Source: Candidatus Moraniibacteriota bacterium
GTDB lineage: Bacteria; Patescibacteriota; Minisyncoccia; Moranbacterales; UBA1568
DNA length: 64,000 nucleotides
NCBI GenBank assembly: GCA_016182385.1
Contig: JACPGV010000007.1
Coordinates: forward strand, 12,147 to 76,146
Direction of reading: 5' to 3'
The translations under genes and the position numbers were made by a program. Position 1 is the first letter of the stretch; every line of letters starts with the position of its first letter. Shown piece by piece: positions 2,306-60,347 of this stretch. The notes under the pieces are model-generated. The model worked only from the letters and a program-made list of their open reading frames with translations. It was not told the DNA's origin and searched no databases.

Positions 2306-3028
2306 TCACTCCACCACCAAAAGGAGTTTTTTACGCTCCTCCTCGACACAATACAAAAACAATGCCTGAGAAGCCAATACCTTGAAAATCTCTACATCTT
2401 CAATATGATTAACTTTTTTGGGGAAAACAACAAAAGCAACAATCCCACCGGCATCATGCGGTGAACGAATCATAGCGCATCCATTTTCCTCGGCAGATAA
2501 TTTGTTCGAATGAAGCAAAGTATTGGCTCCAAAAAAAGAAAAATTACGGCGACGATCGTCCTCAACTACCTTTTCAAGCTTACGCTCTTTCAGATTCACA
2601 AAACGAAGAGAGACCGTCTCGGTACGAGCGAGCAAACGCGCCGCCACAATCACCGGTCGATACATACCGGCGCCGCGCTTTTCCTCCCGTTTAAATCCCT
2701 CCAAAGTATCTTTCGGCAAACGAAAAGCAAGCTCCTTGATAATATCCAACTTCCTATTGATTTCTCCTATGTACGAATACGAATCGGAGAGGTCTCTCGT
2801 AATCGTATTGGCGCGTTTTTGCAAACGAAGTCTTTCCCGAAAAGAAGACAGGAGTGCTTTTTCTTTGGCGAGATATGTCATAAAACCAAGCATGCCAAAA
2901 CAAAGGATAAGAAAAGCCTCGACGTCTTCCTCTCCCAGAAACAATACGTCGCGATTGACCACTTCAGGGATAAAAACCGCTATCAAAAACAAAGAAAGAT
3001 ACACCCAATACATATTTTTATTCTTCAC
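2306..3028 (-). CDS. hypothetical membrane protein
   Basis: Long ORF with N-terminal hydrophobic helices. No family recognised. Confidence 0.4.
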   Translation of the reverse strand: MKNKNMYWVYLSLFLIAVFIPEVVNRDVLFLGEEDVEAFLILCFGMLGFMTYLAKEKALLSSFRERLRLQKRANTITRDLSDSYSYIGEINRKLDIIKELAFRLPKDTLEGFKREEKRGAGMYRPVIVAARLLARTETVSLRFVNLKERKLEKVVEDDRRRNFSFFGANTLLHSNKLSAEENGCAMIRSPHDAGGIVAFVVFPKKVNHIEDVEIFKVLASQALFLYCVEEERKKLLLVVE

Positions 3029-3055
3029 CGAGTCATTCTTTCTCTGTCGTTCTCC

Positions 3056-3946
3056 TTATGACAGAGATAGTCCTTTCAAATAAGATCGCAATTTCTCACC
3101 TACTTCCGGATGCTTAAGACCCAAATGAATGGTCGCTTGTAAAAAATTGAACTTATCGCCCGTATCGAGCCACATCCCCTCAAGCATTCGTCCGTACATC
3201 GGTCGCTTTTTCTCAAGCATGAGATCAAAAGCATCCGCCAATCTGATTTCGCCCGACTTACCGGAATCCATCGACGCGAGTGTCTCAAATACTTCACGCG
3301 TAATAATATATTTTCCTACCGCTACCGCCCGACTGGGGGCATTTTCCGGCTTCGGTTTTTCCACGATATGCGTCACTTTCCAGTCGCGTCCGGTCATCTG
3401 TTCGCCGCCGATCACGCCGAATTTTGATACATCTTCAAACGCTACCTCAGACAATCCGATGATCGGCGCTTGATGTTCTTCGTATGCCTCAATAAGCTGT
3501 TTGGCTGCCGGTACCACGCTATCATAAATACAATCACCAAAAATCACGAGAACCGATTCATCATCATCAACGAGATGCGCTGCTTGAAGAAGTGCGTGTC
3601 CGTCACCAAGCGGAACGGGCTGACGCACATAAGAAAACCTCGCCAATCCGGAAATCCTCTGAACTGTTTCAAGCAAATCATGCTTGTTTTTTTCAACCAA
3701 TGTCTCTTCAAGCTCGTAAGAAACATCAAAATGATCCTCGATGGCGCGTTTTCCACGACCGGTGACAAAAATAATTTCTTCAATACCCGATGCCACTGCT
3801 TCCTCTACCAAATATTGCACCACCGGTTTATCAACGACTGGCAACATCTCTTTTGGTTGCGCCTTGGTAGCCGGTAAAAAACGCGTGCCAAAACCCGCGA
3901 CTGGCAAAATAGCTTTTTTGATTTTTCTCGGTTGACTGCTTTGCAT
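3056..3946 (-). CDS. galU: UTP-glucose-1-phosphate uridylyltransferase
   Basis: KAILPVAGFGTRFLPATKAQPKEMLPVVDKP motif. Start placed at MQSSQPRKIKK to avoid overlap with rfbA. Confidence 0.9.
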   Translation of the reverse strand: MQSSQPRKIKKAILPVAGFGTRFLPATKAQPKEMLPVVDKPVVQYLVEEAVASGIEEIIFVTGRGKRAIEDHFDVSYELEETLVEKNKHDLLETVQRISGLARFSYVRQPVPLGDGHALLQAAHLVDDDESVLVIFGDCIYDSVVPAAKQLIEAYEEHQAPIIGLSEVAFEDVSKFGVIGGEQMTGRDWKVTHIVEKPKPENAPSRAVAVGKYIITREVFETLASMDSGKSGEIRLADAFDLMLEKKRPMYGRMLEGMWLDTGDKFNFLQATIHLGLKHPEVGEKLRSYLKGLSLS

Positions 3947-3962
3947 ATGTTTTTTCAAAAAA

Positions 3963-4757
3963 TTATTTTTTAAGAGAAATGATTTTCTTGAATTCTCCAG
4001 TAAACTCCACAATAGCCTCATTGATGCGCGAATCAAAACGCTCGGAAAAACGATGTTCTCTCACATACGCACTCGCCTCAAAAAGTGATTCGTGCGTCCC
4101 GGTATCAAAATAAGCGCCGGTAATCACGCGTACATCAAGCATCTCTTTAGCGAGATAGTGACGATGCAAATCAGTGATCTCGAGCTCTCCTCGTTCCGAC
4201 GGCACAAGCCCTTTGGCTATCTCCACCACGCTCGAATCGAAAATATAAATACCGGGAATAGCAAAATGACTTTTTGGTTGCGCGGGTTTTTCTTCAATCG
4301 AAATCGCTTTTCCCTTTGTGTCAAACTCCACTACGCCGAAACGCTCCGGATCCGGCACTTCCTTGGCAAAAATACGCCCGCCCTTCTCAAATGTCCGAAT
4401 AGCCTCGGTGAAATCGTCCTCAAAAATATTGTCACCAAGCACTAGTGTCGTCGCCTCGCCATCGATGAAATCCTCCGCAAGAATGAATGCTTCCGCGAGT
4501 CCCCGCGGCGATTTTTGGACGACGAACGAGAGATTGATACCAAATTTCCGGAACATCGAACCGAGCAAATTCAAAAAATGTCCCGAATGATCCGGCGCCA
4601 CGATGATGAGGATGTCCGTGATCCCCGCTTGAATGAGTGTGTTGAGCGGATAAAAGATCATCGGTCGATCATAGACCGGTAGCAATTGCTTGGAAGTGAT
4701 GGCGGTGAGCGGCAGGAGCCGCGTACCGGTTCCGCCGGCGAGAATGATTCCTTTCAT
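3963..4757 (-). CDS. rfbA: glucose-1-phosphate thymidylyltransferase
   Basis: MKGIILAGGTGTRLLPLT N-terminal nucleotidyltransferase signature. Part of the dTDP-rhamnose pathway together with rfbBCD nearby. Confidence 0.9.
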   Translation of the reverse strand: MKGIILAGGTGTRLLPLTAITSKQLLPVYDRPMIFYPLNTLIQAGITDILIIVAPDHSGHFLNLLGSMFRKFGINLSFVVQKSPRGLAEAFILAEDFIDGEATTLVLGDNIFEDDFTEAIRTFEKGGRIFAKEVPDPERFGVVEFDTKGKAISIEEKPAQPKSHFAIPGIYIFDSSVVEIAKGLVPSERGELEITDLHRHYLAKEMLDVRVITGAYFDTGTHESLFEASAYVREHRFSERFDSRINEAIVEFTGEFKKIISLKK

Positions 4758-4761
4758 ACGT

Positions 4762-6000
4762 TTATTTTTTATACACTGGAAATCGTTTACAAAGACTTTT
4801 CACCTCTTTTCGGATGTTTCCCAATACTTTCTTGTCACCGTTTGAACGCAATGTCTCCTCAATAAAACCCGCGAGTATCTTCATTTCTTTTTCTTTCATC
4901 CCCCGTGTCGTGACAGCCGGCACACCGATACGCACACCCGAAGGGTCGAGCGGACCCCGTGGATCATCCGGAATGACGTTTTTGTTGATCGTAATCCCGA
5001 CTTCATCCAAAAGTTTTTCCGCTTCTTTGCCTGTGATTCCGTAACTCTTCACCGTATCGATGACCAACATATGATTTTCGGTCGTCCCACCAAAAAGAAT
5101 TATCACGCCACATTTGGCTAATTTTTTTTCAAGCGTTTTGGCATTTTTTAAAATCTGTCTGGCATATTTTTTGAAATCAGAACGAAGCGCTTCGCCAAAC
5201 GCTACGGCTTTCGCGGCGATTGTATGCATATGTGGGCCACCTTGCGTTCCCGGAAAAACCGCCTTATCGATCGCTTTGGCATACTGCTCGCGGCACAAAA
5301 TCAATCCCCCGCGCGGACCACGCAAAGTCTTGTGTGTCGTCGCCGTCACGATATCGAAATATGGTACCGGATTCGGAAGCACACCCCCGGCAACAAGACC
5401 AGCAATATGTGCCATATCCATCATCGAGAGCGCACCTACCTTTCTTGCGATTGCCGTAAATTTCTCATAATCGATCTGTCGCGTATACGAGGAAAACCCC
5501 GCGAGCATCAACTTCGGTTTCGTTTCTTTCGCTAATTTTTCCAATTTCTTATAATCAATCGTCCCGTCCGCTTCGGTCTTGTACCGAACGAAGTTATACA
5601 CTTTCGCCGGAAGCGTCACCGGATGCCCGTGCGTCAAATGTCCACCGTGCGAGAGATCCATCCCGAGCACCGTGTCATCTGGTTCGAGAAGCGCCGCATA
5701 AACGGCCAAGTTGGCCTGTGCCCCCGAATGTGGCTGGACATTCGCGTGTTCCGCGCCAAAAAGTTTTTTCGCCCGATCGATAGCCAAAGTCTCCACGACA
5801 TCCGTCCATTCCTGTCCGCCGTAATAACGCCGACCTGGATACCCTTCGGAATACTTGTTCGTAAAAACCGTCCCGAGCGCCTCGAGCACCGCTTTCGACA
5901 CGTAATTTTCCGATGCTATCATTTCCAGACCTTCTTCCTGTCGCTTCTCTTCACCAAGAATCGCGCGCCACACTTCTTTATCATTTTTTTTATGCGCCAT
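4762..6000 (-). CDS. glyA: serine hydroxymethyltransferase
   Basis: [11 protein letters not shown] and the PLP-lysine region ([12 protein letters not shown]) are present. Start chosen at MAHKK by alignment to canonical GlyA N-termini. Confidence 0.95.
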
Positions 6001-6077
6001 AAATAAAGCAAAAATATCCGTCATGGAGATTACAAATATATTTTTATCCTAGCAAAAAAAGCCACCCACCGCACCAT

Positions 6078-6106
6078 TGACAGAATGTCAAAAAAGGTGT
6101 ATAATT
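6078..6106 (+). promoter_or_regulatory. sigma70-type promoter TTGACA-17-TATAAT
   Basis: Exact consensus -35 and -10 hexamers with a 17-nt spacer, upstream of the GC-rich ORF. Confidence 0.5.
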
Positions 6107-6175
6107 AACGTTTCAGAATGCACCACATTCTGGGCATGTACCTGAACAATTTTTTTTTTTTGATCCGTAGAAGTT

Positions 6176-7177
6176 TTGCGGATCGATGAAGTTTTGCCCT
6201 GCGGCATCGGGCGTGAAGAAAGTAGGCGTACCAGCGCCTTCAAATCCAAACATTCCTGCGTGCCTGGCATTGCACGTGGGAAAAGGAATCAAATGAAAAA
6301 AGTAACAATTGAACGCGGCCGCACGGTTGCGTTTGAAGATCTTCCCGCAAGGTCGATCGCCCTGGACGGGTATTGTCAAGGACCCGATGTCGACGTTGAG
6401 AACCAGCGGTTCTCGTTTGACCACCATGACAAGTGCCTTCGTCTTGTGACGAAGGCCACTTGCGAACAGGTCCTGGATGCACTCCTCCTAGGGCTCGATC
6501 CGACCGCGTTCACGATTTTCGTGAACGATGTTGACGGCGACACCGTTCTTTCGGTGTGGTTACTCCGCAACTCAAAGCGGGCCGCCGAAAAAACGGTGCG
6601 AGAGCTGGTTGCAACCGTGGGCGGTATCGATGCTCACGGCCCGGCCTACCCGGCAATCGACAATGCTCTGGCGGAGAAATTCTTCCAGGGCGTTATGAAG
6701 CCCGAGCTCGATCTGCGGCGCACGAAACAGTACGCAACGTGCGATCTCCAGACGCTCCTCGAACAATGCGTCGAAAATATCGACGCGTTACTCGCGGGAA
6801 AAATCGAGCTCGCCTCGAAAATGGAGCGTCATTTTGAAACCACTCACTGCGGTAGCGGCTGGGTGATGGCAAAGTCGGACGACTTCATTTTCGATCTCTT
6901 GTACGCGGAGGGGTACACTCGTGCCATTGCGTACAAGATTCTTCCCGACGGATCAGTGAACTATACCGTCGGCAAGAAATCCGAGCTGGTCGGCAAATTT
7001 CCCGTCGGCCCCGGTTCCAAGGTGAACTCCATCCTCTACGCGCTCAATGAGCGGGAAACGGGATGGGGAGGCGGTTCAACGATCGGTGGCTCCCCGCGCA
7101 ATGCGGATGGTTCCCGATCACGCCTTACCCCCGACGAGGTTTTTGAAATCGTCGAGAGAGTGGTGATGGAGGGATAA
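6176..7177 (+). CDS. hypothetical protein; GC-rich, likely horizontally acquired
   Basis: ORF with visibly higher GC than its neighbours. Alternative ATG start at 6293. Contains DHH-like and GGGS motifs in a non-canonical order, so no confident family call. Confidence 0.55.
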   Translation: MRIDEVLPCGIGREESRRTSAFKSKHSCVPGIARGKRNQMKKVTIERGRTVAFEDLPARSIALDGYCQGPDVDVENQRFSFDHHDKCLRLVTKATCEQVLDALLLGLDPTAFTIFVNDVDGDTVLSVWLLRNSKRAAEKTVRELVATVGGIDAHGPAYPAIDNALAEKFFQGVMKPELDLRRTKQYATCDLQTLLEQCVENIDALLAGKIELASKMERHFETTHCGSGWVMAKSDDFIFDLLYAEGYTRAIAYKILPDGSVNYTVGKKSELVGKFPVGPGSKVNSILYALNERETGWGGGSTIGGSPRNADGSRSRLTPDEVFEIVERVVMEG

Positions 7178-51921: not shown

Positions 51922-52125
51922 CAACTTTCAACACAACACCTCCGGCAATGACGATCGGCTTTCCCTCCGTCATCAAAAACGAGACCAAGAGATCATCTTT
52001 CTTGATTTCACAGGTAAAGTGTTCGACAACGTACAAAAACTTCTGCACCGGGATTTCTCGTCGTAAATTTCTCTACTCCGGATACGTTCCACCGAGATTG
52101 ACTTGGCCAATATGCTTTAACATCC

Positions 52126-52833
52126 CTATTCTTCCCGGATGTTGACTTCATCAACGCTATCGGAGAAGAGCGTGGCGATATCTCGCATCTCTTCCGGCGA
52201 AAAAGCATGATAATCCTTAAATGAGGGATGAAGAGTGACCCCGTTGCGAAAAGTCTGAAGATACAAACGCTTGGCACCCTGCGTCATCTCTCGCATTGCA
52301 TCGAGAATTTCAGGTGTATGCACTTCCCTGATAAGGGTCGAGCGGAATTCATAATCAACTCGCCCCTCTTTTAAAATATCGATACTCTCCCGAAGTTTCA
52401 TCTCATCTGCCCACTTCCCAACAAGTGCCTGATATGCCGGCAAACTCGTCTTCACGTCCATAGCGATATAATCAACAAGACCTTTATCAATAAGCGCGCG
52501 AAGCACTTCCGGCTTGTTGCCATTAGAATCAAGTTTTACCGCGAATCCGAGATGACGTACATCCATAATAAATGACTCGAGATCAGGCATAATAGTCGGC
52601 TCACCGCCGGTAATCACCACGCCGTCGAGTAAACCTTTTCGTTTTTGTAAAAAATGAAGCGCCGCTTCTTTGGGGATAAAGCTTTTGGAAAGTCTGGCGA
52701 GCTCTTCCGGCAAAACGAATTCTGGATTATGACAAAATCCACAACGATAATTACAACCACCCGTAAAAATAATACAAGAAATCTTTCCCGGAAAATCAAT
52801 CAAAGTAAATTTTTGGATGCCGCTAATGATCAT
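52126..52833 (-). CDS. nrdG: anaerobic ribonucleotide reductase activating protein (radical SAM)
   Basis: FTGGCNYRCGFCHNPE CxxxCxxC motif. Confidence 0.9.
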   Translation of the reverse strand: MIISGIQKFTLIDFPGKISCIIFTGGCNYRCGFCHNPEFVLPEELARLSKSFIPKEAALHFLQKRKGLLDGVVITGGEPTIMPDLESFIMDVRHLGFAVKLDSNGNKPEVLRALIDKGLVDYIAMDVKTSLPAYQALVGKWADEMKLRESIDILKEGRVDYEFRSTLIREVHTPEILDAMREMTQGAKRLYLQTFRNGVTLHPSFKDYHAFSPEEMRDIATLFSDSVDEVNIREE

Positions 52834-53075
52834 ATCAACAATAAAATCAATCCCCTAAAAGGTCGAGGGACTTTTTAAAAAAACTTCCAGCAAGAGAGGT
52901 GTCTTTCCGAAAAACTCTGGGGACCAAACAAACCGATTCTGTTCCATAAAGAATGGAGGCGAAGACAAAACATACTGAGTCTCTCTCGCTTGGACAAACA
53001 AGCAACACAAGAAAAAATTGTTTATCAAACAGGAAGGGGACAACAAAAAAATCCCAAAAAAAACTTACACCTCAC

Positions 53076-53282
53076 CTAGCATGCAACACATTCGTACTTT
53101 TGACAAAACTCGTTGTTCGCGGCGACCGTTTCGGTAAAATGTTTCCGCGAATAATGCTCCGCCTTTTTCCCAATATTGAAATGCGATACCGGACGATGGT
53201 ATCCCATAACGCGCGTCCACACTTCGCAACGTGTTCGTTTGGCATTTACATCCTCCCCTTCTTTCATAATGTTTTCCGACAT
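53076..53282 (-). CDS. NrdD C-terminal glycyl-radical domain, encoded out of frame downstream of nrdD
   Basis: RTRCEVWTRVMGYHRPVSHFNIGKKAEHYSRKHF matches the class III RNR glycyl-radical signature (E. coli TRRVCGYLGSPDARPFNAGKQEEVKRRVKH). Confidence 0.55.
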   Translation of the reverse strand: MSENIMKEGEDVNAKRTRCEVWTRVMGYHRPVSHFNIGKKAEHYSRKHFTETVAANNEFCQKYECVAC

Positions 53283-53322
53283 AGGTATATGTTGGTTAGG
53301 TTGATTATTTTTTATTGAATAA

Positions 53323-55440
53323 TTATTTTGCCGCTTCGGCACTCTGATACTTCTCATGCAACGCCTGATCATATCGCTCACCGTTTTCAATGCCCAATTC
53401 CTGATCACACTTGGGACAATAATCATGTTCTCCTTCGAGATACCCGTGTTTGGGACAAATGGAGAACGTCGGTGTGATCGTGATATACGGCAAACGGAAA
53501 CGAGAAAGAATGCTCCGTACCAATTTACGGCAAGCCTCTCCCGAACTCACTCGTTCGTTCATGTAGCAATGAAGTACTGTTCCACCGGTATACTTCGTCT
53601 GAAGGCTATCCTGTAATTCAAGCACTTCAAAAACATCATCCGTATACCCGACCGGAATCTGTGAGGAATTGGTATAGTACGGCGCTTCTTCGGTGCCCGC
53701 CTGCAAAATACCCTGAAACCGCTTGCGATCTTCTTTGGCAAAACGATAGGTTGTTCCTTCGGCTGGTGTTGCCTCAAGATTGTAAAAATTTCCAGTCTCT
53801 TCTTGATAATCTTTAATTTTCTCACGCATAAAATCAAGCAACTCCTCAGCAAACTTATGTCCTTCAGCGGTCGTGATGTTCTCCTTATCGTTGGTAAAGT
53901 TACGAATAGCCTCGTTGATGCCGTTTATACCAATCGTTGAAAAATGATTCTTAAGATAACCAAGGTAACGCTTCGTGTAAGGGAAAAGTCCCCGATCGAT
54001 CCACTTCTGTATTTCTTGACGCTTAATTTCAAGCGATGTTTTGGCGAGTTCCATCAAATATTCAACACGCTTCATGAATTTTTCCTTATCGCCTTTGCAG
54101 AGGTAGCCAATACGCGCCGCATTGATGGTCACTACACCGATCGAGCCGGTCATCTCCGCTGAACCAAACAATCCGCCGCCACGTTTCCGCAGTTCACGCA
54201 AATCAAGCTGAAGTCTGCAGCACATCGAACGCACGTCGCCGGGATTGAGATCAGAATTAACAAAGTTCTGAAAATATGGTGTGCCATATTTCGCTGTCAT
54301 TTCAAAAAGCGGTAAGTTTTTCGGATCCTCCCAATCAAAATCCTTGGTCACATTGTACGTCGGTATCGGAAAAGTAAAGGTGCGTCCCTTGGCGTCGCCT
54401 TTGGACATCACTTTGATAAAAGCGCTGTTAATAATATCCATCTCGTGTTGAAGCTCACCAAACGTGTACTGAAATGGCTCACCACCGAGAAGGAGACGTT
54501 TCTCACTCATATCCTTCGGACAATCCCAATCAAGCGTGACGTTGGTAAAGGGTGTTTGTGTCCCCCAACGTGACGGAATATTCAGATTGAAAACGAATGA
54601 TTGAACGTTCTGATAAACGTATTCGGAAACCTGCTCGGCGACATATGCCTCTTTTTCCTTTTCTGATGGAAAACGCATTTTATATTTCTCAATATCTGCA
54701 CGCAGTTCCAATTCATACTTCTTCACGAACGGAGCCATATAGGTATCAAAGCTTGAGAACGCTTGCGCACCAGCCCATTCATTTTGTAGCGTACCAAGAA
54801 AATTGACCATCATTGCCACCGCCGAAGAAAGATGTTTGGGCGGAGCGGATTCGATTTTATTTGGTACACCGTTAAATCCTTCTTCAAGGAGCACGCGCAA
54901 ACTCCAACCGGCACAATAACCGGAAAACATATCAAGATCATGAATGTGATAATCACCGTTACGGTGAGCATCACCCACATTCTTGGGATAAATATGAGAG
55001 AGCCAATAATTAGCAATAACACTCCCCGCCGTATTCAAAATCATTCCACCCAAAGAATATCCCTGATTGGAATTGGCATTAACGCGCCAATCAAGTTTTT
55101 CCAAATATTCCGTTACCGTTTTTTGCACTTGCACGACGACGTTTTTCTCTTCGCGTACCTCCCGACGTTTTTCACGATACAAAATATACGCCTTTGCTGT
55201 TTCAGTATATCCATATCTCATGAGAACGTCTTCCACTACATCCTGCACTTCTTCAACTGTCGGGATTTTATCTTCAAATTTTTCTTCCAACCCCGCGTAA
55301 ACGTCCTGTGCAAGAATATAAGAAGTAATATCATCTTTCTTCTCTGTTGCTTCCGCTGCCTTCTCAATAGCCAGCTCAATTTTTTTCAGATCAAAATCAA
55401 CGATACTTCCATTACGCTTCTGGATCTTATATACCGGCAT
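53323..55440 (-). CDS. nrdD: anaerobic ribonucleoside-triphosphate reductase; the ORF ends after the zinc ribbon and lacks the Gly-radical motif
   Basis: ATP-cone N-terminus, class III RNR core, C-terminal CxxH...CxxC ribbon, then a stop. Confidence 0.9.
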   Translation of the reverse strand: MPVYKIQKRNGSIVDFDLKKIELAIEKAAEATEKKDDITSYILAQDVYAGLEEKFEDKIPTVEEVQDVVEDVLMRYGYTETAKAYILYREKRREVREEKNVVVQVQKTVTEYLEKLDWRVNANSNQGYSLGGMILNTAGSVIANYWLSHIYPKNVGDAHRNGDYHIHDLDMFSGYCAGWSLRVLLEEGFNGVPNKIESAPPKHLSSAVAMMVNFLGTLQNEWAGAQAFSSFDTYMAPFVKKYELELRADIEKYKMRFPSEKEKEAYVAEQVSEYVYQNVQSFVFNLNIPSRWGTQTPFTNVTLDWDCPKDMSEKRLLLGGEPFQYTFGELQHEMDIINSAFIKVMSKGDAKGRTFTFPIPTYNVTKDFDWEDPKNLPLFEMTAKYGTPYFQNFVNSDLNPGDVRSMCCRLQLDLRELRKRGGGLFGSAEMTGSIGVVTINAARIGYLCKGDKEKFMKRVEYLMELAKTSLEIKRQEIQKWIDRGLFPYTKRYLGYLKNHFSTIGINGINEAIRNFTNDKENITTAEGHKFAEELLDFMREKIKDYQEETGNFYNLEATPAEGTTYRFAKEDRKRFQGILQAGTEEAPYYTNSSQIPVGYTDDVFEVLELQDSLQTKYTGGTVLHCYMNERVSSGEACRKLVRSILSRFRLPYITITPTFSICPKHGYLEGEHDYCPKCDQELGIENGERYDQALHEKYQSAEAAK

Positions 55441-55590
55441 ATCTCTTTGTTTTATTTACGAATTATCATCGTCTGATCGCTCACCAGAGAAGAAAAAGCG
55501 GCTCCATTCAAAGCCCCCTTCACTTCTTCTTTTTCGTTTCCCATGAAACAAAATATTTTTTGAGTACAAGTGTTACATTTCTCTGACAAC

Positions 55591-55606
55591 ACACTACATA
55601 TAGTGT
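55591..55606. promoter_or_regulatory. NrdR-box-like 16-bp palindrome ACACTACATATAGTGT
   Basis: Matches 15 of 16 positions of the acaCwAtATaTwGtgt consensus. Lies about 150 nt upstream of nrdD. Confidence 0.35.
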
Positions 55607-55816
55607 ATTATTCACTTTTCTTGCGAAAAACGCAATCCCCTCGCTCAGTCTTTTCTCAAGTAAATAATACCATATCAATAAAAAAAGAAGCAACTGTTTT
55701 TTACGTGCCTCAACAAAAGGATTTTTGACCGATACCACAAAGTTATCCACATACCAAAAAAACACTCTCCCTATCACGATCACCACAAAAAACGGTCTGC
55801 CGAACACCTTTCGTCG

Positions 55817-56332
55817 TCATACATGTTTCTTTTCTTTTTCTTCCCGTCCTCTTTTTCTGATAAAAAATGAACCATACAAGACGATGAGTAGAATGACGTT
55901 AGAAACAAAAATAAACGGATTGTTCCACGGAATACCGTACACAACAAAATCAGAAAGTGGCCACAAAAATGGCGTAGGAAAAAAACTCGCATGAGTAGGA
56001 ATATCCAAAAGAATATGAAATCCCCATGCGACAAGAGGAAAAAAGGGCTTGCCCCGTATCAACCAAATGAGCAAAAACACACCAAGAAAAATGACGAGAC
56101 TGTGTGTGTAATCATACAACGTATAAACAAAGAGTGGGATTTGTGAAGCGTCGGGATGCTGGCCAGAACGCCAATCAGGATGATCAAAAAACCCAAACCA
56201 AACACCGAGGAGAAAAAAACCAAAAGACAAAAGATCGGGCGCAACGCCAAACAGAAACGCCATGAAAAAATCGCGACGACTTCGACGACCAAAAATGCCT
56301 GATCCCCACAACCCATGCGAAACGATATCCAT
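55817..56332 (-). CDS. DUF457/YdjM-like membrane-bound metal-dependent hydrolase
   Basis: MDIVSHGLWG N-terminus and multiple TM helices with His residues. Confidence 0.5.
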   Translation of the reverse strand: MDIVSHGLWGSGIFGRRSRRDFFMAFLFGVAPDLLSFGFFLLGVWFGFFDHPDWRSGQHPDASQIPLFVYTLYDYTHSLVIFLGVFLLIWLIRGKPFFPLVAWGFHILLDIPTHASFFPTPFLWPLSDFVVYGIPWNNPFIFVSNVILLIVLYGSFFIRKRGREEKEKKHV

Positions 56333-56921: not shown

Positions 56922-59900
56922 CTACGGCGTTCCTCCGACTTTGGATGACCAGAAACTGATGCCATTTGGTTGTTTGCCGACCGTGATGCGAGCAATCTCT
57001 CGATCTTCCCTCGTATCAACCACGGAAACATCCCCACCTAAAAGATTCGTCACATATGCGAATCGTCCATCCGGAGAAACAACGATTCCATGTGCCGCCT
57101 CTCCCACCGGAATGGTTTGTACGACTTCTTTTCCAACGATATCGATCTTATAGAGCATCTTTCCTACCGGCTGGTCAAAATAATATCCTTGATCCGCCAC
57201 ATAGAGAAAGCGACTGTCCGGCGTGGGATAAAGCTGTACCGGCCCCCTCGCTTCTTTTGAAAGAGAAATCTCCTGGATCTTCTGCGTATCTCGCTCCATC
57301 AGAATGATACTTTTTCTATCATAGAGAGAAGCGGCTACCCATTTCCCATCCGGCGTCACTGCTGCTTGAACGCCTTTGCCCTCGCTCACAACTTTTTGGA
57401 TTGTGCCACTAGCAATGTCGAGCGACCAAAAACCGCCTCCGATAAAAGCAATATAGGCTGTCTGATCATCGATTGAAAGTCGCAAACCGTGCGGGCTGCT
57501 TCCTTTCGGCAATGTGATCTCACGCAAAACCTTGAAACTCTTCGCGTCTATCTCATAGACCAAATCGGATGCTTGGGCCGCAACATACGCCCGCTCTCCA
57601 AAACGGCTCATCACGACATGAGCGAGATGCGATTCTGACGCCAAAGAAATACGCTTCATCACCGTATCCGTTTTCGGATCAATAACGATAACTTGATCTT
57701 TTTCACTCATTTCTCCTTTCATGGTATCCGCACGCACTACGGAAATGATACGGCGGAAAATACTCACCTTCTCATCTTTCATAGCGACATTGGCGGTCAC
57801 CCACACGCTTTGCCCGTCCGGAGCGACTTGGATATTATGGGCAGAAAATGAAATTTCTTCATTTCCCATCCGGCGCGTCAAATCGATTTCTCGAATCATT
57901 TTTTTTGTTTCCGGATCAAGCACGACTACCGTACTTTCTCCTTCAAGCGCCACGTACACCTTGTTCTCTATCTGTCCAGCATATGAAGCTGCGTCCTGTA
58001 TATTTTCATCATTCATGGCTATACTGCTCCATCTTGCAAATTGAAAAAACAACAATGAGAAAATAACTACCAGAATCATCGGTGTCATAAGAGACAACCA
58101 GTTTTTCTTTCCCGGACGAAAAAAACGAAGAAACAAAGAATTCGTCACGACCGATACCGACGAAAGTGCCATAGCAAGACCGGCAAGTTCCGGCTTCAAC
58201 ACGAGACCGACATCCGCGAACAATCGTGCGGCGATCGGAATTCCCATCACGTTATACAAAAGCGCGAAAAAGAAATTCTGTTTTATTTTTTGCATCGTCT
58301 CTCGGGAAAGCTCAAACGCTGTCACAACATCGCGCAAATCATTTTTCATAAGAACGATGCCACCAGTCTCCATTGCCACGTCCGTCCCCGCTCCCATCGC
58401 AATACCAAGATCTGCCTGTGCAAGAGCCGGCGCGTCATTGATACCATCGCCGACCATGGCTACTTTTTTTCCGTGAGATTGCAATTCCTTAACCTTAGCG
58501 GATTTTTCTTCCGGGAGCACTCCCGCCAATACGTTCTTGATACCAACCGTTTCCGCAATGGCACGCGCCGTCCGCTCATTGTCGCCCGTAATCATCCATA
58601 CGTTAAGACCAAGCTTTCCGAGTTTTGCCACCGCCTCTTTCGATGTTTCCTTGACGGTATCCGCAACCGCGATTCCGCCAACAGCCCCTTCCGGTGTCGC
58701 CAGGATCATCACGGTCTTGCCTTGTTTTTCCAACTCAAAAATTTTCTCATTCATCTGATGAGGCAATACACCGCTATCGCTCACCAGCTTATAATTCCCA
58801 AAACAATATTCTTTTCCATCTATCTCTCCTCGTACACCACGTCCCGGAATCGCTCGAAAACTCCTCACCTCAAAAAGTTTTAATTTTTTTTCATTCGCAC
58901 GAGCATAAATCGCTTCCGCAAGTGGATGCTCAGAAAGCTTCTCAAGACTTGCAGCAATCGAAAGAATATCATCCTCCGTCATGTCGCAAAAAGAAAAAGT
59001 GTCCGTTACTTCCGGCTTTCCCCGAGTAATAGTTCCTGTCTTGTCAAAAATAATCGTCGTAATCTTTCTCGTCATTTCGAGCGGCTCGCCACCTTTGATA
59101 AGAATACCGTTCTCCGCGCCCTTGCCGGTACCTACCATAAGCGCCGTCGGCGTCGCTAATCCCAAAGCACACGGACACGCGATCACGATCACCGCAGTAA
59201 AAGCCATCAGGGCAAATGATAGATCCGCTCCGAGCAACACGTACCACACACCAAAAGTCAAAAACGCGATACCGATAACGGTCGGCACAAACCACGCGGA
59301 AACTCGATCAGCAAAATCCTGAATCGGCGCTTTGGACCCCTGGGCTTCTTCGATAAGTCGTATAATATTGGCAAGCACTGTCTCACTCCCCACGCGCGTC
59401 GCCTCACACTCAAAGCTGCCGGCCTTGTTCATCGTTCCGCCAATCACGGAGTCACCAACATTTTTTTCCACTGGCAAACTTTCACCGGTAACCATCGATT
59501 CATCAACAGCCGAGACACCACTTCTTATTTTTCCATCAACAGGAATTCTTTCTCCCGGGCGCACGACTACGATATCGCCATGCACCACTTCTCCTATCGG
59601 AACATCTTCTGTCGCGCCCCCGCGCACCACCCGAGCCGTCTTTACCGTAAAATCCATTAATTTTCTCACCGCCTCTGATGTTTTGTTCTTCGTTCTTGTT
59701 TCAAGCCATTTTCCAAGCACTACAAATGTGATCAAAAACGCGGCTGTTTCAAAATACAATTCTGGAATTTTTTCCCCGGCAAGACCGATAAAAGAATCAT
59801 TCTCCCATACATATCGCCCATAATTCGTCACGCTGTACAAAAACGCCGTTGTTGTTCCTAAAGCGATAAGACTATCCATATTAAACATCTTCATCCGAAG

Positions 59901-60347
59901 CGATGACCACGCACCACGATAAAATCCCGCACCGATCCAAAATTGCACCGGGAGAGTAAGAAAAAGCGATACGACCCCGACATACGGCAACAACGTGTCT
60001 TTGCCAAAAACTTGAAAAAAATCAAAGAGCATAAAATAAAACATCGGCATCGAGAATACCAGTCCCCAGATAAATTTCCGCCGATATGTGCCGACCACAA
60101 GCTCTTGTTTCTTTTTTTCATATTCCGTATCTTCAGAATTGATTTCTTCCGCCTCGTATCCGGCCGCCCGTACCGTCTGTTTCAAGACGGCAACAGTGGT
60201 TTGATTATCATCAAACAGCACGGTGACTTTTTCGGTAGCGAAGTTCACGTTTGCCGATTCCACACCGCGTACCTTCTTGAGTGCCCGCTCAATGATGCTC
60301 GCGCATGAAGCACAATGCATCCCCGAAAGAGAAAGTTGCTTTTTCAT
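56922..60347 (-). CDS. copA: copper-translocating P1B-type ATPase fused to a C-terminal YVTN beta-propeller domain
   Basis: HMA domain (GMHCASCA), CPC motif, DKTGTIT and GDGINDAP. After an extra TM helix there are about 390 aa of YVTN repeats ([15 protein letters not shown]). Confidence 0.9.

Follow-up and report, generated by a model that had tools for sequence, protein, structure and literature searches.

Reviews of ribonucleotide reductases (RNRs) describe class III as one catalytic chain, NrdD, with a C-terminal radical domain, plus an activase. The one-piece NrdD enzymes and NrdG activases of phage T4, Thermotoga maritima and Prevotella copri (PDB 1h78, 4coi and 8p23) combine an ATP-cone, a barrel, finger-loop cysteines, a zinc ribbon and an RVxGY radical loop with an adjacent activase. 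The same parts are present in the class III RNR locus analysed here, which lies on the minus strand of a 64,000-nucleotide (nt) stretch of DNA from a Candidatus Moraniibacteriota bacterium (contig JACPGV010000007.1, positions 12,147 to 76,146; hereafter the window), and its chemistry is presumed to be the same. Unlike in one-piece NrdD, however, the catalytic chain stops after the ribbon and the radical loop is a separate product, 48-83 residues long in loci of this type; in addition, the second ribbon ligand is a histidine (CxxH) instead of the cysteine found in 8p23. We consider it probable, at about 85%, that the locus is a three-gene class III RNR operon consisting of the gene for a large NrdD subunit, the gene for a small glycyl-radical subunit and nrdG, in which the small subunit is obligatory and docks non-covalently.

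Partial parallels exist in other enzymes. In class I RNR a stable radical resides on a separate beta subunit, which docks on the catalytic alpha subunit. The present system would resemble it in placing the radical on a separate polypeptide that docks on the catalytic subunit, but beta is a ferritin-like metalloprotein that makes its radical with O2 and relies on long-range transfer, whereas here a short peptide activated by a radical S-adenosylmethionine (SAM) enzyme would insert by the active-site cysteine. GrcA (YfiD) of Escherichia coli and Y06I of phage T4 are small stand-alone proteins with a glycyl-radical loop, which use the activase of their partner, act in trans and include a phage version (PMC8683613); the small protein of the window, 68 residues long with the motif RVMGY and with homologues of 48-117 residues, is of the same kind and would likewise act in trans. 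By homology, GrcA belongs with the C-terminus of pyruvate formate-lyase, and the small protein studied here with the NRDD family, the only one that it matches. Moreover, GrcA rescues an oxygen-damaged enzyme that has a radical domain of its own, while the large subunit lacks such a domain both in the window and in 76 related loci. The comparison with a GrcA-like spare part, made in a preliminary description of this DNA, is therefore apt as far as a small radical protein is concerned, but not for the word spare: because the large subunit itself lacks a radical domain, the small protein would be obligatory. According to a 2026 review, spare-part proteins are known for no glycyl radical enzymes other than formate lyases (PMC13450708).

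A split RNR of another class, NrdJa/NrdJb, occurs in Pseudomonas aeruginosa, an organism that also carries the split class III locus. Its class II chain is likewise distributed over two adjacent genes, with a C-terminal module on the second product; unlike the system described here, it is B12-dependent, and NrdJb is a large protein with a zinc finger and a redox-active cysteine tail but no radical site. The P. aeruginosa literature regards this class II split as 'exceptional' and treats class III as nrdDG (PMC4860495). Large phylogenetic surveys place the class III radical domain at the C-terminus, and one of them dropped sequences of fewer than 400 residues, a filter that would have discarded the small subunits. 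Full-text literature searches found no paper describing a split NrdD, and the split class III layout has apparently not been described as such before.

In the window, the gene of the large, catalytic subunit occupies positions 53323-55440 and encodes 705 residues, comprising an ATP-cone, the NRDD barrel and a zinc ribbon, without a glycyl-radical domain. Its TAA stop codon lies at 53325-53323 and the protein ends in ...CPKCDQELGIENGERYDQALHEKYQSAEAAK. An A+T-rich intergenic spacer of 40 nt (53283-53322) separates it from the gene of the small glycyl-radical subunit at 53076-53282, which encodes 68 residues followed by TAG and probably starts at ATG 53282 (MSENIMK...). The frame of the small gene is open from an ATG at 53426 to the TAG at 53076-53078, contains in-frame ATG codons at 53282 and 53267, and encodes ...RTRCEVWTRVMGYHRPVSHFNIGKKAEHYSRKHF...; it differs from the frame of the large gene, the distance from the large-gene stop to the conserved cysteine codon being 94 nt (94 mod 3 = 1). 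After a further spacer of 242 nt (52834-53075), which shows little conservation among relatives, follows nrdG (52126-52833), encoding a radical-SAM activase of 235 residues that matches the NCBIfam model TIGR02495 (NrdG2; E 2e-56, 190.5 bits against a cutoff of 131) and Pfam Radical_SAM. A search of Rfam over 52000-56000 gave no match in either spacer, a promoter and terminator scan of the junction performed no better than on shuffled sequences, and the 242-nt spacer contained no terminator-like site.

Comparison with protein families showed that the two open reading frames (ORFs) are parts of one family. The large ORF covers positions 2-530 of the 562 of Pfam NRDD (PF13597; E 1e-175, 585.9 bits against a cutoff of 26.2) and the small one positions 532-562 (E 8e-8), so that together they cover the family exactly and the junction coincides with the break in the profile. 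In NCBIfam NF006126, the large ORF extends up to position 653 of 684 (1083 bits, cutoff 548) and the small ORF covers positions 648-682; the large ORF also matches TIGR02487 (458 bits, cutoff 326). NRDD was the sole Pfam match of the small ORF, with no match to Gly_radical at E<=0.01. A PDB sequence search aligned the large subunit with P. copri NrdD (8p23) over residues 5-680, whereas no match was obtained when the query was the small subunit joined to the final 97 residues of the large one. Judged by its family profiles, by the four-ligand ribbon read from its sequence and by the nearby NrdG, the enzyme would be assigned to class III NrdD; among the features tested, only the RVxGY loop departs from that class, since it is located in a separate ORF in another frame instead of on the same polypeptide. 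The preliminary description had placed the end of nrdD behind the zinc ribbon, with a stop at 53323 and no glycyl-radical motif, and had recognised the class III radical loop in a separate frame starting at 53282 or 53267 and ending at 53076; the ORF and profile limits agree with this, and the 40-nt gap, the change of frame, the opening of the second frame at 53426, the AAA-TAA at 53328-53323 and the in-frame AAA at 53264-53262 were all given correctly.

Apart from the radical loop, the large subunit appears to be complete. Its ATP-cone (residues 5-94, positions 55159-55428) is recognised by Pfam PF03477 with E 6e-23 and 81.7 bits. Cys407 and Cys408 in the motif SMCCRL (54217-54222) are, as read from the sequence, the presumed finger-loop cysteines and site of the thiyl radical, and SMCCRL presumably represents the double-cysteine finger loop of the Thermotoga-type lineage in the sense of Burnim et al. 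2022. The zinc ribbon, C662-P-K-H665 ... C675-P-K-C678 (53407-53457), is located entirely in the large subunit and looks complete, because its four ligands align with the CxxC...CPKC ribbon of 8p23, a histidine replacing the second cysteine. The ribbon motif TPTFSICPxHGY..GEH.FCPxCD is invariant in the 76 split and 4 contiguous loci classified below. The ribbon is followed by a tail of 27 residues, DQELGIENGERYDQALHEKYQSAEAAK (53326-53406), at the position of the short linker of contiguous enzymes, which is just 4-12 residues long in the contiguous relatives. In Patescibacteria this tail is conserved (ELGI..G.R.D...R..Y...), and in Proteobacteria it is shorter (EALLA...).

The small subunit consists of a variable leader of 15 residues, the radical loop RVMGY with Gly27 (codon 53202-53204), and a short tail. 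Its core, R16-F49 (RTRCEVWTRVMGYHRPVSHFNIGKKAEHYSRKHF, 53136-53237), corresponds to the pattern R-x-R-C-E-V/I-W-T-R-V-M-G-Y-H-R-P-V..F-N.G-K..E-H..R.H-F, which is essentially invariant in 253 small subunits, the residues R, C, E, W, T, R, V, G, Y, R, P and N being invariant or nearly so, while leader and tail vary. The cysteine eight residues before the glycine, Cys19 in the window (codon 53226-53228), was found in 252 of the 253 sequences; contiguous representatives have threonine (24), cysteine (18) or another residue, including alanine, at the same position. The four ligands of the ribbon are already present in the large subunit without this cysteine. The C-terminal tail, TETVAANNEFCQKYECVAC (53079-53135), contains three cysteines, one of which is the final residue. 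An F-C-x7-10-C-terminus arrangement recurs in small subunits of Moranbacteria, and at least two tail cysteines are present in 57 of 255 small subunits. Cysteine pairs were thus noticed at the very end of one or the other chain (P0257, P0260, P0263, P0264, P0300, P0400; L166 3941-3957), either in the arrangement just given for Moranbacteria small subunits or as CxxC, CxC or CC in large subunits that lack the radical domain, that of P. aeruginosa ending in CCGGCGG; these pairs resemble the redox-shuttle tails of class I and class II reductases.

The split is very widespread, the layout recurring in thousands of bacteria and in phages, and the window is an ordinary member of a group represented in hundreds of independent assemblies. 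Database searches with the small ORF yielded 4232 relatives at E<=1e-3, the best with E 5e-41, so the match is far beyond chance. The best 120 of these were all stand-alone proteins, 54-117 residues long, many of them from Moranbacteria, Magasanikbacteria and other Patescibacteria, and the top relatives of a Pseudomonas small protein used as the query likewise stood alone. The identical small protein of the window is present in four separate datasets. In three gene contexts that were fetched (from a Magasanikbacteria genome, a Moranbacteria genome and a 1.9-Mb genome), the order of large gene (704-706 residues), small NRDD ORF (56-68 residues) and radical-SAM activase is kept, with spacers of 20, 38, 78 and 201 nt in the fetched contexts. 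These small ORFs are named in databases as 'anaerobic ribonucleoside-triphosphate reductase', 'oxidoreductase', 'hypothetical protein' or 'integrase/recombinase'.

In a scan of species-representative genomes, one genome per species, at least 600 matches were obtained and 84 loci were classified, of which 76 were split, 4 contiguous and 4 undetermined. The contiguous loci all belong to Actinobacteria (Occultella, Bifidobacteriaceae and Cellulomonadaceae), and split loci were also found in Halomonas, Billgrantia, Pseudomonas, Stutzerimonas, Thiocapsa, Alloalcanivorax, Betaproteobacteria, Omnitrophota and Elusimicrobia. A plasmid search for relatives added Cupriavidus, Ralstonia, Paracoccus, Bradyrhizobium and Allochromatium, the split layout having been inspected in the C. 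necator pHG1 record alone. Together with the stand-alone homologues, the 76 split loci strongly support an enzyme that is truly split and has a detachable radical domain, one of the four explanations offered in the preliminary description. The distance from the large-gene stop to the conserved cysteine codon ranges from 10 to 469 nt, with remainders of 0, 1 and 2 on division by three in 18, 20 and 38 loci, respectively. The longest distance, 469 nt, is that of a single locus (L031), the others measuring 10-228 nt. The two genes need not be adjacent: in locus L171 the order is large subunit, a DUF7487 gene, nrdG and small gene, which places the small gene 1.7 kb from the large one. The DUF7487 protein of this locus (3001-7023) has 353 residues, and DnaB, MazG and Rad50-like genes are neighbours. 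In the 1.9-Mb genome (L003 4200-4445), an ORF for an 81-residue thioredoxin/glutaredoxin-like protein (CQKC) lies between the small gene and nrdG; this protein may be the reductant for the reductase. No long nrdD ORF was found under the standard bacterial code upstream of the small gene in two Gracilibacteria loci (L032, L085) and one Peribacteria locus (L051), in the former two presumably because Gracilibacteria read UGA as a sense codon.

Large subunits without a radical loop are also common. The large subunit was searched against 1.84 billion cluster representatives (50% identity) and the best 150 were classified. Among these, 48 end 0-44 residues after the CxxH...CxxC ribbon without a loop; 49 miss both the ribbon pattern and the loop, many of them having a variant ribbon CPxHGY...CP[YF]xH, a class in which truncation was not checked one by one; 46 carry the loop on the same chain and 7 are ambiguous. 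Thus, about 97 have no glycyl-radical motif. Both loop-less representatives whose loci were fetched have a small NRDD ORF nearby, and in the one with the variant ribbon the small protein reads ...PCEVYSRIVGYLRPV.... In this NrdD subfamily, large subunits often have 900-1800 residues and match the query in 3-6 stretches (P0256-P0405), which indicates that the subfamily is unusually rich in inteins; Intein_splicing is annotated in L170 (762-4556).

P. aeruginosa and Cupriavidus necator, for whose anaerobic growth nrdDG is genetically required, share this three-gene layout. P. aeruginosa has an nrdD of 675 residues, a 48-residue ORF with the radical loop 43 nt downstream, and an nrdG overlapping the stop of the small ORF. 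The megaplasmid pHG1 of C. necator H16 encodes a reductase of 676 residues, a 66-residue gene product named 'nrdD' in RefSeq, and NrdG. Anaerobic growth and biofilm formation are impaired in nrdD mutants of P. aeruginosa and are complemented by the cloned nrdDG region (PMC4860495), and nrdDG was reported to be essential for full denitrification in C. necator H16; 'NrdDG' of C. metallidurans was listed as Rmet_5137 and Rmet_5139, one gene between them being skipped (PMC2864759). Judging from the gene order, the complementing clones would have contained the small ORF. The genetics of P. aeruginosa and C. necator thus support the view that the split layout works in vivo.

Small genes were also found in viruses. 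In about 48 of 80 related loci on metagenomic viral contigs, the small gene is present with no large subunit or nrdG within about 3.5 kb. The neighbours of these lone genes (L091, L093, L163, L126, L097 and about 40 more; match at about 3501-3660) encode endolysin, integrase, tail-fibre protein and phosphoesterase. A tblastn search of GenBank phages with a small protein of the phage type gave no match, so the copies are so far restricted to metagenomic viral contigs. The lone phage genes parallel Y06I, the GrcA homologue of phage T4, and argue for a peptide able to work in trans with a large subunit of the host; the phage gene may be an auxiliary gene supplying the radical subunit of the host reductase.

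In bacteria that use Shine-Dalgarno (SD) sequences the small gene carries its own translation signals, and by this sequence evidence it is translated independently from its own start. A canonical AAGGAG lies 6-8 nt upstream of its ATG in Halomonas, Pseudomonas, Stutzerimonas and Alloalcanivorax, and an AGGAGG precedes it in an Omnitrophota genome; the start context in P. aeruginosa reads ...cagcAAGGAGtacccccgATG. Stop and start overlap as ATGA at the junction in two loci, and a spacer separates the genes in most. Five junctions from closely related Moranbacteria all share the start context TATGTC, but their spacers vary in length and sequence, with indels that are not multiples of three. For the window, ATG 53282 is the likely start and is favoured over 53267 by the conservation of an 'ATG TCN' start in relatives. 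The identical protein in GenBank (MBI2439549.1, 'oxidoreductase', from a Candidatus Moranbacteria metagenome-assembled genome) is given as 63 residues, starting at the second ATG (53267), and other gene callers predict 68 or 93 residues.

Alternative explanations that would restore a one-piece NrdD find little support in these data. A stop codon followed by the missing domain in another frame has the appearance of a single-base error, and the preliminary description accordingly listed a sequencing or assembly indel, that is, one continuous nrdD with a base lost or gained near 53323. However, the same break, with a 27-residue tail and a 15-residue leader as extra sequence around it, recurs in independent assemblies of many phyla, as well as in complete genomes and finished plasmids (P. 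aeruginosa; C. necator pHG1), with all three frame offsets and with the identical protein in four datasets. Conservation of the split across hundreds of assemblies made independently, complete genomes and plasmids among them, for practical purposes excludes an indel. Recoding, by a programmed frameshift or by a hop like that of T4 gene 60 from AAA at 53328-53326 to AAA at 53264-53262, would also yield a fused NrdD. Two matched AAA codons do flank a 61-nt gap, the stop directly follows the take-off codon, and the small ORF lacks an SD sequence, but the likeness to T4 gene 60 is superficial and limited to the window. AAA is common in a genome of 45% G+C, and the closest relatives, represented by the five Moranbacteria junctions, do not keep the landing AAA. 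The spacer of 10-469 nt and the freely varying frame offset are at odds with a programmed frameshift, which needs a fixed offset and a slippery site in an overlap. A check for a hairpin at the take-off site, proposed in the preliminary description, found no significant structure in the junction RNA (53240-53360; -16.6 kcal/mol against a shuffle mean of -16.0, z = -0.21), and the comparison of orthologues proposed there found the split to recur in relatives, but not its spacer or frame offset. Orthologues initiate independently, with their own SD and ATG, and the small gene can follow nrdG or stand alone in phages. The absence of a strong SD in the window had been correctly noted as well, but the conclusion that ribosomes arrive from upstream does not follow: among the 46 ORFs of at least 200 residues in the window, 25 have no recognisable SD, nrdD and nrdG included, and just 9 have a match of at least 4 nt, so in a genome that rarely uses SD sequences its absence is uninformative. 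Both forms of recoding are therefore very improbable.

Joining of the two products by trans-splicing of a split intein would fit the intein-rich nature of this NrdD subfamily and the cysteine near the junction on the small subunit. Nevertheless, the tail of the large subunit (10-40 residues) and the leader of the small one (about 10-20 residues) are too short and too variable for intein halves, the conserved cysteine is preceded by arginine and not by the His-Asn that ends inteins, and neither ORF matches an intein family in Pfam, which leaves this idea with a negligible chance of being correct. The small protein could instead be a facultative spare part, analogous to GrcA, for a full-length NrdD encoded elsewhere, the truncated large ORF being inactive or having another role; the stand-alone phage genes agree with a peptide that can be supplied in trans. 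Yet the operon in which the truncated large gene stands together with the small gene and nrdG is conserved, the large subunit retains a catalytic domain with a full score (1083 bits), and no second nrdD exists within the 64-kb window. Furthermore, in the literature consulted, this nrdDG is the only locus named as a class III reductase for P. aeruginosa and C. necator pHG1, and its mutants are reported to have anaerobic phenotypes. A facultative role is very improbable.

Under the preferred reading, that of an obligatory, non-covalently docking small subunit, the enzyme would work as follows. The 705-residue large subunit would supply the ATP-cone, the barrel with its finger-loop cysteines and the complete ribbon, and the 68-residue small protein would be made from its own start, most likely ATG 53282. 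Gly27 of the small subunit would lose a hydrogen atom to NrdG, and this subunit would dock in the barrel of the large subunit at the place taken by the C-terminal domain of one-piece enzymes, with its loop beside Cys407/Cys408, and there generate the thiyl radical for nucleotide reduction. Such a division could bring two advantages: no domain would have to leave the barrel for the activase to reach the glycine, and when O2 cleaves the chain at the glycyl radical, a peptide of 5-8 kDa would be lost and an enzyme of 80 kDa spared. Many bacteria with a split locus, among them Pseudomonas, Halomonas, Cupriavidus, Paracoccus and Bradyrhizobium, are denitrifiers or facultative anaerobes, a lifestyle that fits the idea of a sacrifice to oxygen. 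That the benefit of the split lies in a disposable radical module is a tentative proposal, to which we give even odds at best.

The gene architecture and its conservation, the independent translation signals of the small gene and its separability from the large one are direct observations. Several points weigh against the proposed operon or limit its support. Association of the two polypeptides and the location of the radical on the small chain are deduced here from the genes, as are activation by NrdG and catalysis, and the rationale of the split is an interpretation built on them. The published genetics concern nrdD or nrdDG and never the small ORF separately. AlphaFold2, given the small subunit alone with an alignment of 60 sequences, returned no confident fold (mean predicted local distance difference test 54, predicted template modelling score 0.21); a protein that folds on binding would fit this result, which proves nothing in itself. 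In a crude neighbour-joining tree built from 63 representatives, split and contiguous forms are intermingled, with 15 parsimony changes, a pattern that shows no clear selective logic; this tree is unreliable because of inteins and fragments and allows no conclusion on single or repeated fission or fusion. The absence of an SD sequence before the small gene of the window counts weakly against the operon, most genes of the window lacking one too. Overall, we are highly confident of the genetic architecture and moderately confident of the functional rationale.

Outside the operon, a 1141-residue ORF (56922-60347, minus strand) resembles heavy-metal P-type ATPases at its N-terminus and has a C-terminal extension of about 390 residues, apparently rich in repeats. 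A related ATPase is also encoded upstream of nrdD in locus L004.

If the proposed reading is correct, genetic work on P. aeruginosa and C. necator has dealt with 'nrdDG' and left a third essential gene unmentioned. For annotation, it means that to mark the large subunit as truncated would be a mistake and that the small ORF deserves a family and a name of its own. It would provide a natural system for studying the access of the activase to a buried glycine and the exchange of a radical domain between enzyme molecules, and would extend the 'spare part' idea beyond pyruvate formate-lyase, a possibility on which the field had speculated without finding an example. With the small subunit, glycyl radical enzymes would gain their first obligatory 'radical cofactor protein', comparable in function to the separate radical subunit of class I RNR, and the phage copies suggest a new kind of auxiliary metabolic gene. 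In its broadest form, which we rate as an even chance, the finding would define an undescribed large branch of class III RNR, taking in P. aeruginosa, C. necator, Halomonas, Paracoccus, Bradyrhizobium and much of Patescibacteria, in which the radical is carried by a diffusible peptide of 5-9 kDa that is activated by NrdG off the enzyme and replaced after oxygen damage, and to which phages add copies that boost deoxynucleoside triphosphate synthesis in their hosts.

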